64,000 nt of DNA from Escherichia phage vB-Eco-KMB42 (OR539221.1), one strand, 5' to 3'; counted from the first letter of the stretch, positions 60,014 through 60,790 are shown. Program-made: numbers and translations. Notes: generated by a model not told the origin, from the letters alone.

Positions 60014-60790
60014 ATGGCAGTAGCAGGACCGTGGGTAGGATCGTCTGCAGTAGTTAATACAGGACAAAATTGGATGGGCGGCGCGGCCCAACGATTAAGA
60101 ATGGGCATTCCGTTCTGGATGGGTAATATGATAGGTCGATCTGTTGAAGTAATTCACACGCTTGGAGCAGACCATAACTTCAATGGTCAATGGTTCCGAG
60201 ATAGATGTTTTGAGGCAGGTAGTGCACCTATAGTGTTTAATATCACTGGAGATTTAGTATCATATTCTAGAGACGTTCCTTTATTCTTCATGTACGGAGA
60301 TACACCGAATGAATATGTTCAATTGAATATACACGGCGTAACGATGTATGGTCGCGGCGGGAATGGTTGGGCTGCTGGAGCGATTGGAGCGTCTGACGGT
60401 GGTGTATGTATCCAAAATGATATAGGTGGACGCCTACGAATTAATAATGGGGGAGCTATTGCTGGAGGCGGCGGCGGTGGCGGTGGATATTCGCAAGCCA
60501 ATAACTGGGCAGGAAAATATGTATGTGGAGGCGGCGGTGGTCGTCCATTTGGTTTAGGCGGAAATAATGGTGCTCGATGGCCTGGTGGAAATGCTAGCTT
60601 AACAGCACCTGGTGCTGGTGGTAATACTGGCCAATATTGGGCTGGCGGTGGAGGTGAAGTTGGTCAACCAGGTCAATATGCTAATCCAGGTAATGGTTAT
60701 TCAACACCTCCGACAAATCCTGGTGCTGCTGTAGCAGGATCGGCTCCAACATGGCAAAACGTTGGAGCCGTATACGGTTCAAGAGTATAA
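60014..60790 (+). CDS. 38: Receptor-recognising adhesin gp38 (T2-type, glycine-rich motifs)
   Basis: 258 aa from ATG at 60014 after GGAGG RBS; multiple poly-Gly stretches (GGGGGGG, GGGGG, GGGG) separating short variable segments. Confidence 0.85.

Follow-up and report, generated by a model that had tools for sequence, protein, structure and literature searches.

Gene 38 of Escherichia phage vB-Eco-KMB42 encodes a T2/S16-type adhesin of the PP01/AR1 kind with variant receptor loops

In T2- and T6-type phages the C-terminus of the distal tail-fibre protein gp37 is cleaved and gp38 then caps the fibre, and in T2, S16 and PP01 gp38 is known to sit on the virion, at the tip of the fibre, and to be required for adsorption. 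This T2/T6-type adhesin is the predominant form, T4 having swapped the ancestral C-terminus of gene 37 together with gene 38 for lambda-like sequence (PMC3157838, PMC6851490). The RefSeq record of T4 also notes that the 'gp38' of the T2 subfamily is an unrelated adhesin. In the S16 complex, the gp37 trimer offers three equivalent pockets, which three tryptophans of gp38 fill (PMC6851490).

For phage PP01, crosslinking and mutagenesis have shown that gp38 binds OmpC(O157) via loops D and E, and five receptor loops have been defined, namely A (W119-I124), B (Q161-V170), C (N184-W189), D (N204-Y209) and E (N225-S231) (PMC12892980). Deletion of G208 was tolerated, Y209 and the loop-E backbone around Y230 were essential, and loop-B residues Y159, K168 and Y169 also mattered, K168 and Y169 being linked to LPS (PMC12892980). 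At position 228, A228D or a deletion abolished infection, whereas A228V and A228L were tolerated (PMC12892980).

The window analysed in the current study is a stretch of 64,000 nucleotides from Escherichia phage vB-Eco-KMB42 (OR539221.1), given as one strand, 5' to 3'. A first-pass annotation, made from the sequence of the window, had placed gene 38 at 60014-60790 and described its product as a protein of ~258 aa with several polyglycine stretches. The ORF scan of the window agreed, giving a plus-strand ORF of 258 aa from ATG to stop (table 1), in which glycine runs of eight (G151-G158), five (G172-G176) and four residues (G211-G214) were accompanied by shorter motifs. The homologues of gene 38 begin at the methionine of ATG 60014, and so does the Gp38_N profile, whose positions 1-40 fall on residues 1-40; this ATG is therefore the start of gene 38, and TTG 60002 is not. 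The TTG, which was rejected, lies inside a hairpin and 5' of the Shine-Dalgarno sequence, and the homologues begin with MAV. Also rejected was a proline-rich minus-strand ORF of 60 aa (60319-60501), which is merely the antisense of the gene 38 glycine codons.

Gene 37 ends in a double TAA (59980-59985), which is followed by the hairpin (59987-60002) adjoining the gene 38 Shine-Dalgarno sequence. Gene t (holin, Pfam Phage_holin_T) lies 3' of gene 38 at 60823-61479, so that the gene order is g37-g38-t. The hairpin was present in the MFE fold, its 51-nt context having a z of -1.4 relative to shuffled sequences, and the equivalent hairpin in the K3 record X04747 is labelled 'stem-loop, pot. transcription terminator'. 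With a z of only -1.4, and being a known C(UUCG)G intergenic hairpin of T-even phages, it was not retained as a novel or significant structure.

Table 1. Positions of the features of the gene 37-gene 38 region, counted from the first nucleotide of the window.
Feature	Position	Strand	Basis or remark
Gene 37, distal long-tail-fibre subunit, 1109 aa	56653..59982	+	ORF; alignable with T4 DNA over the first ~167 nt only
Block without T4 DNA alignment: gene 37 after ~codon 56 and gene 38	56820..60797 (3978 nt)	+	blastn, window against T4 99279-163395
gp37 C-terminal intramolecular chaperone, residues 999-1109, Peptidase_S74 type	59647..59982	+	Pfam PF13884; predicted cleavage before Ser999
Hairpin, 6-bp stem with C(UUCG)G tetraloop	59987..60002	+	Sequence and MFE fold; between gene 37 double TAA and gene 38 ribosome-binding site
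Shine-Dalgarno GGAGG of gene 38	60004..60008	+	Read in the sequence, 5 nt before ATG 60014
Gene 38, receptor-recognising adhesin, 258 aa plus stop	60014..60790	+	Pfam, PDB, AF2/Foldseek, DNA identity
N-terminal attachment domain, residues 1-40, with W7/W20/W35 and S37G	60014..60133	+	Gp38_N; alignment
Divergent patch in the receptor-binding part of gene 38 only, relative to BECP11, AR1 and PP01	60244..60792	+	Difference counts, sliding-window map
Receptor loop A, W119-I124	60368..60385	+	PP01 definition; identical to PP01; entropy peak 119-126
Receptor loop B (hypervariable segment), Q161-V170, with K168 and Y169; Y159 just upstream	60494..60523	+	Identical to PP01; entropy peak 159-170
Receptor loop C, N184-W189	60563..60580	+	Identical to PP01; entropy peak 183-191
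Receptor loop D, N204-Y208, plus W209	60623..60640	+	Relative to PP01: T207Q, G208 lost, Y210W
Receptor loop E, N224-S230	60683..60703	+	Relative to PP01: Asn227 for Ala228

The family and fold of gp38, its domain and loop layout, the conservation of its key residues, the chaperone module of gp37 and the genomic context were all computed in the present analysis. In Pfam, gp38 matched GP38 (PF05268; 243.4 bits, E 3e-72) and Gp38_N (PF21721; 69.1 bits, E 3e-19), in both cases over the full profile length and with a cut-off of 25. The only sequence matches in the whole PDB were 9V85, the receptor-binding domain of PP01 gp38 fused to sfGFP (E 5e-138; 97% identity over residues 39-258), and chain D of 6F45, gp38 of Salmonella phage S16 (E 2e-52, aligned full length). 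The same two entries were the only ones found when an AF2 model of gp38, predicted from a 77-sequence alignment (mean pLDDT 92.8), was compared with the PDB by Foldseek (9V85, rmsd 0.7 A; 6F45_D, TM 0.84-0.87). This model, which is predicted and not an experimental structure, matched the three-domain fold of a helical attachment domain, a beta-helix and a polyglycine-II sandwich. T4 gp38, which at 183 aa has the size given in the first-pass annotation, showed no similarity to gp38 of the window (BLASTP E = 17), and no Tfa-like match was found in the Pfam, PDB or Foldseek searches. These data identify gp38 as a T2/S16-type adhesin and not as a Tfa-like chaperone of the T4 type, as had been proposed when it was grouped with the T2, K3 and Ox2 adhesins; its best homology was not to the T4-type protein. 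The label 'T2-type' is right for the family and too coarse within it, the protein being of the PP01/AR1 subtype, with gp38 49% and gp37 ~30% identical to the T2 proteins.

Glycine accounts for 24% of gp38 overall and for 33% of residues 112-258. In the family alignments, glycine columns 113-116, 151-157, 172-176, 200-202, 211-214 and 217-220 were invariant. Entropy in the 77-sequence family alignment peaked between these motifs, at residues 119-126, 159-170, 183-191, 202-210 and 220-232, and the five peaks coincided with receptor loops A-E of the PP01 crystal structure. Of the five loops, B to E are probably the four hypervariable segments of the classical description (PMC3157838). Alignment with gp38 of T2 and S16, which had been suggested as a check, likewise showed conserved glycine motifs; for Ox2 and M1 the gene 38 records X05675 and X05676 were used, and for K3 the gene 37 record X04747. 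That such variable loops contact the receptor, another proposal of the first-pass annotation, has been demonstrated by experiment with the PP01 protein, which is 95% identical (PMC12892980).

In the comparison alignment, which comprised Ec_O157kw, CAM-21, BECP11, PP01, T2, T6, M1, Ac3 and S16, residues W7, W20 and W35, the three that fill the gp37 pockets in S16, were invariant, S16 included, and the same was true of G151-G158. The attachment domain of the window protein carries one unusual residue, S37G, which is caused by A->G at 60122 and which none of the other close gp38 genes in the comparison shares. The serine at this position, two residues away from the anchor residue Trp35, has a conservation of at least 90% in the 77-sequence alignment. 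The replacement may be genuine variation or an adaptation, or it may stem from an error in sequencing.

Gene 37 was 99.8-99.9% identical in DNA to the genes of MLF4, ECML-363, BECP11 and Ec_O157kw, and at the protein level the alignment of its product to T4 gp37 was confined to residues 1-646, with 33% identity, while the identity to T2 gp37 was 30-32%. The claim that gp37 is 1109 aa long and has a chaperone-like module at its C-terminus was borne out by a match of residues 999-1058 to Peptidase_S74 ('chaperone of endosialidase', PF13884; E 4.5e-12). The motif VRS999DIRVK1004KD found there is common to gp37 of T2, K3 and Ox2, and aligns with SDRRIKKD of S16. Residues 920-1109 matched the S16 gp37 tip construct 6F45_A (E 1.4e-44) and gave no match to the T4 gp37 tip; the C-terminus of T4 gp37 is a histidine-rich receptor-binding needle, unlike that of the window protein. 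By analogy with gp37 of the T2/T6 type, gp37 of the window would be cleaved before Ser999.

The backbone of the window aligned with T4 DNA in long blocks of 92-97% identity (blastn). The block formed by most of gene 37 and gene 38 was the largest of seven alignment gaps, with flanks that were 92.5% and 97.0% identical. It gave no blastn alignment to T2 DNA, no better than to T4, and is therefore not an import from T2. Over window positions 40000-64000 the nearest genomes were ECML-363, Ec_O157kw, G157lw, CAM-21, BECP11, JY01, AR1, RB51 and RB68 (95-97% identity), and the same type of g37-g38 pair was present at the same place in all nearest genomes fetched, which are O157:H7 phages of the AR1/PP01 group (Ec_O157kw, CAM-21, BECP11, AR1 and PP01, and ECML-363 with a broken g38), the cassette identity being 92-99.9%. 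Gene 38 itself was 99.6% identical in DNA to that of Ec_O157kw and 99.2% to those of CAM-21 and G157lw; a look-up of the exact 258-aa sequence in public assemblies matched no record. In tblastn searches, the T2-type gp38 matched 860 phage records and T4 gp38 matched 297, of which ~207 had at least 60% identity and were T-even-like, the rest being weaker and including lambdoid Tfa; lambda Tfa was itself matched by the T4 query. The cassettes of the relatives, these record counts and the literature thus show that the T2-type g37-g38 arrangement is the common state of the genus and that the chaperone-type gp38 of T4 is the exception.

Other differences from T4 were seen elsewhere in the window. 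Six T4 mobile insertions in the span were all absent (segD, segE, the nrdB intron with I-TevIII, nrdB.1 plus mobE, the td intron with I-TevI, and segG), the flanking genes being joined directly at 7246/7307, 12361/12381, 40270/40273, 40946/41002, 44131/44132 and 48629/48665 (blastn against the T4 annotation). The minus strand carries two full-length tandem paralogues of alt, which encodes a packaged ADP-ribosyltransferase (22794-24851 and 24855-26948; 685 and 697 aa); in T4 a single alt is accompanied by the remnants alt.-1/alt.-2, annotated as an old partial duplication. Small minus-strand ORFs (115, 85, 119, 100 and 128 aa) that have no T4 DNA counterpart occupy 44684-45087, 45695-46217 and 46543-47221 in the td-frd-gene 32 interval, and are typical hyperplastic early-gene filler. 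Among the public records, ECML-363 (OL631483) was the best overall match to window 40000-64000 and is unusable as a reference for g38, which at 11350-12447 is split into two ORFs by an error-laden partial duplication of ~300 nt; genes 37, 38, t and asiA are unannotated in it. The split is probably an assembly artefact of the public record.

At a finer scale, the differences between the window and BECP11 were concentrated in the receptor-binding part of gene 38. There were 67 in 60244-60792, compared with two over 860 nt on its upstream side and none over ~300 nt on its downstream side, while gene 37 differed at 6 of 3330 nt and gene t at 4 of 657 nt. In this patch, which covers the beta-helix and the glycine sandwich, dS was ~0.5 and dN/dS ~0.05, the scaffold being under purifying selection and the replacements concentrated in loops D and E. 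The nearest relative is not the same for the receptor-binding half of gene 38 as for gene 37, and the patch appears, from these sequence comparisons, to be an old allele of the receptor-binding module that recombination has exchanged, leaving the attachment domain with gp37. In CAM-21 gene 38 is 99.2% like that of the window, but a patch in the gp37 shaft (57675-58500) is only ~75% identical. Moreover, in a protein cluster of 92 members (P0002, 261 aa) the N-terminal attachment domain is of the T6/M1 type and the receptor-binding domain of the PP01 type, and this natural chimera shows that natural reassortment of the two gp38 halves takes place. Modular exchange of gp38 parts has been described before (PMC3157838). 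Patches of 67-91% identity, even relative to Ec_O157kw and ECML-363, were also found in gene 34 (51075-54425) and in an arn.3/arn.4-like region (62450-63375); mosaic exchange thus extends beyond g37-g38.

The window protein differs from the crystallised domain of PP01 gp38 in only six ways, S198A, T207Q, loss of G208, Y210W, Asn227 in place of A228, and I254V. With three exceptions, the replacements that distinguish its receptor-binding domain from those of PP01, AR1 and BECP11 lie in or beside loops D and E, and the loop D/E allele (Q207, the deletion, W209 and N227) occupies the positions shown in PP01 to contact OmpC loops 5 and 7. The residues found critical in PP01 are kept (Y159, K168, Y169, Y208, equivalent to PP01 Y209, and Y229, equivalent to PP01 Y230), with the exception of A228. 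Ec_O157kw and CAM-21 have a receptor-binding domain identical to that of the window, including the asparagine at the tip of loop E, and their recorded hosts are STEC O157 and O157:H7, respectively. Together with G157lw, they make up the three genomes with a near-identical g38, all of which were isolated on O157 hosts. For CAM-21, G157lw, Ec_O157kw, ECML-363 and BECP11, the literature was searched for data on receptors and yielded nothing useful. The kinship with PP01, the conserved loops and the O157 hosts of the phages with an identical domain therefore lead us to predict that OmpC(O157) is probably the receptor, the Asn227 tip being the main caveat. Given this tip, and a loop D that is shorter by one residue and carries Q207 and W209, the range of OmpC alleles recognised could therefore differ from that of PP01.

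We consider it very probable that gp38 of the window belongs to the PP01/AR1 subtype of the T2/S16-type adhesins, and that it is carried on the virion as a monomer and binds the receptor. Its presence in the virion, the cleavage of gp37, a 1:3 stoichiometry and the OmpC receptor are carried over from close homologues, and would fit together as follows. The gp37 subunits would trimerise with the aid of their own C-terminal intramolecular chaperone (residues 999-1109), and this module would then cut itself off before Ser999. One gp38 would dock on the bared tip of the gp37 trimer by means of W7, W20 and W35 of its N-terminal helical domain. Its C-terminal part would form a beta-helix, and the glycine motifs would build a polyglycine-II 'sandwich' displaying the five variable loops, A-E, at its distal end. 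Binding would most likely be to extracellular loops 5 and 7 of OmpC(O157), through loops D and E backed by loop B and with some contribution from LPS, and this engagement would be the reversible first step of adsorption and would set the host range. Nothing in the analysis contradicted the assignment of gp38 as an adhesin, the receptor being its weak point.

Two other readings concern the nature and the origin of the cassette. A gp38 that acts, as in T4, as a non-structural assembly chaperone for a gp37 that itself binds the receptor would occupy the genomic slot in which gene 38 is found, and some records of homologues do bear the name 'distal long tail fiber assembly catalyst'. The absence of similarity to T4 gp38 (E = 17) argues against it, as does a fold shared with the S16 and PP01 adhesins, which have been seen bound to the gp37 tip or crosslinked to OmpC; moreover, gp37 has an intramolecular chaperone of its own and is without the receptor-binding tip of T4. 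Such a role is thus highly improbable. The g37-g38 pair could also be viewed as a foreign host-range cassette, derived from T2 and recently acquired by a T4 genome, since 56820-60797 is the sole large block that cannot be aligned with T4 between flanks of 92-97% identity, tail-fibre loci are known from the literature as recombination hot spots, and close relatives show fine-scale patches. It is, however, the nearest relatives that argue against this origin, all of them carrying the cassette at 92-99.9% identity, and the block has no DNA alignment to T2, whose gp38 is only 49% identical. T2-type gp38 outnumbers the T4 type by ~3-4 to 1, T4 gp38 resembles lambda Tfa, and the literature places the acquisition in T4, so we regard a recent import into the window as very unlikely. 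The mosaic host-range cassette in a T4-like backbone that the first-pass annotation had described therefore stands as a single large unalignable block relative to T4, and not as an acquisition by this phage, since its nearest relatives share the cassette and T4 was the acquirer.

The remaining alternative accepts the adhesin and moves its target. The loop D/E allele (Q207, the deletion, W209 and N227) might redirect gp38 from the OmpC(O157) cleft bound by PP01 to other OmpC alleles, another outer membrane protein or LPS. The clustering of replacements relative to PP01, AR1 and BECP11 at these two loops is consistent with such a shift, and so is the loss of infection caused by A228D in PP01. 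T207 is a site of convergent PP01 adaptation, T207I having arisen in all four lines evolved on O157:H7 (PMC6027323), and small changes in the hypervariable segments switch receptors among T2/T6 relatives (PMC3157838). Set against this, loops A-C and all residues essential in PP01 except A228 are conserved, PP01 tolerates the deletion of G208, Ec_O157kw and CAM-21 have O157 hosts with an identical domain, and closely related gp38s generally have a common receptor (PMC12032242). A redirected gp38 is accordingly unlikely in our view, and OmpC(O157) is kept as the predicted receptor. Somewhat less doubtful, and put forward tentatively, is a combined proposal in which the loop D/E allele may alter the OmpC-allele host range or the adsorption rate relative to PP01 and AR1, the half of gene 38 at 60244-60792 would move as a module independent of gp37, and S37G might tune the attachment to gp37.

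The type of gp38, its structure and its receptor-contact map are already known, from a near-identical crystallised domain and from contacts obtained by crosslinking and modelling. In the deposited genomes, several records label gene 38 as an adhesin or receptor-recognising protein and some as a hypothetical protein. The present results are of practical use for annotation and for the triage of phages for therapy, the sequence predicting an OmpC-dependent, O157-type host range. The natural variant in loops D and E also offers a direct test of the PP01-OmpC contact model, and in particular of the claim that residue 228 has to be hydrophobic. Furthermore, a common misreading is corrected, the T4 chaperone-type gp38 being exceptional among T-even phages and the T2-type adhesin the norm.

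Among the known systems, PP01 gp38 shows 95% amino acid identity to the window protein over its full length, 97% over the crystallised domain, and identical loops A, B and C. The glycine motifs, the g37-g38-t order and a gp37 of 1109 aa with a chaperone tail are the same in PP01, AR1 and BECP11 as in the window, and gp38 of BECP11 is 97% identical. An identity of 95% to PP01, compared with 49% to T2, places gp38 of the window in the PP01/AR1 kind. The DNA of the receptor-binding half is ~12% diverged from that of PP01 (dS ~0.5), which indicates that the allele is old and separate from that of PP01; the N-terminal domains differ at residues 8-19, and S37G occurs only in the window. The gp38 proteins of Ec_O157kw, CAM-21 and G157lw differ by only one or two residues (G37S; V14I in CAM-21).

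At a greater distance, S16 (6F45) has the same three-domain architecture with three tryptophans, an identically numbered G151-G158 run in its helix 3, and a homologous gp37 tip with chaperone, whereas its gp38 is ~50% identical, its variable loops are unrelated in sequence, and its host is Salmonella (OmpC). The gp38 proteins of T2, T6, Ox2, M1 and K3 belong to the same family, with five classical glycine motifs, four hypervariable segments and a position after a cleavable gp37. Their identity to the window protein is 49% for T2, 63% for T6, 66% for M1 and 72% for Ox2 (residues 1-145 only); T2, T6 and Ox2 have a two-residue 'VP' insertion near the N-terminus that is absent from the window protein, and the receptors of the whole group are FadL/OmpF, Tsx and OmpA. 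T4 gp38 has nothing in common with the window protein beyond its name and its gene's place between g37 and t, being of unrelated sequence, 183 instead of 258 aa long, a relative of lambda Tfa and not a component of the virion.
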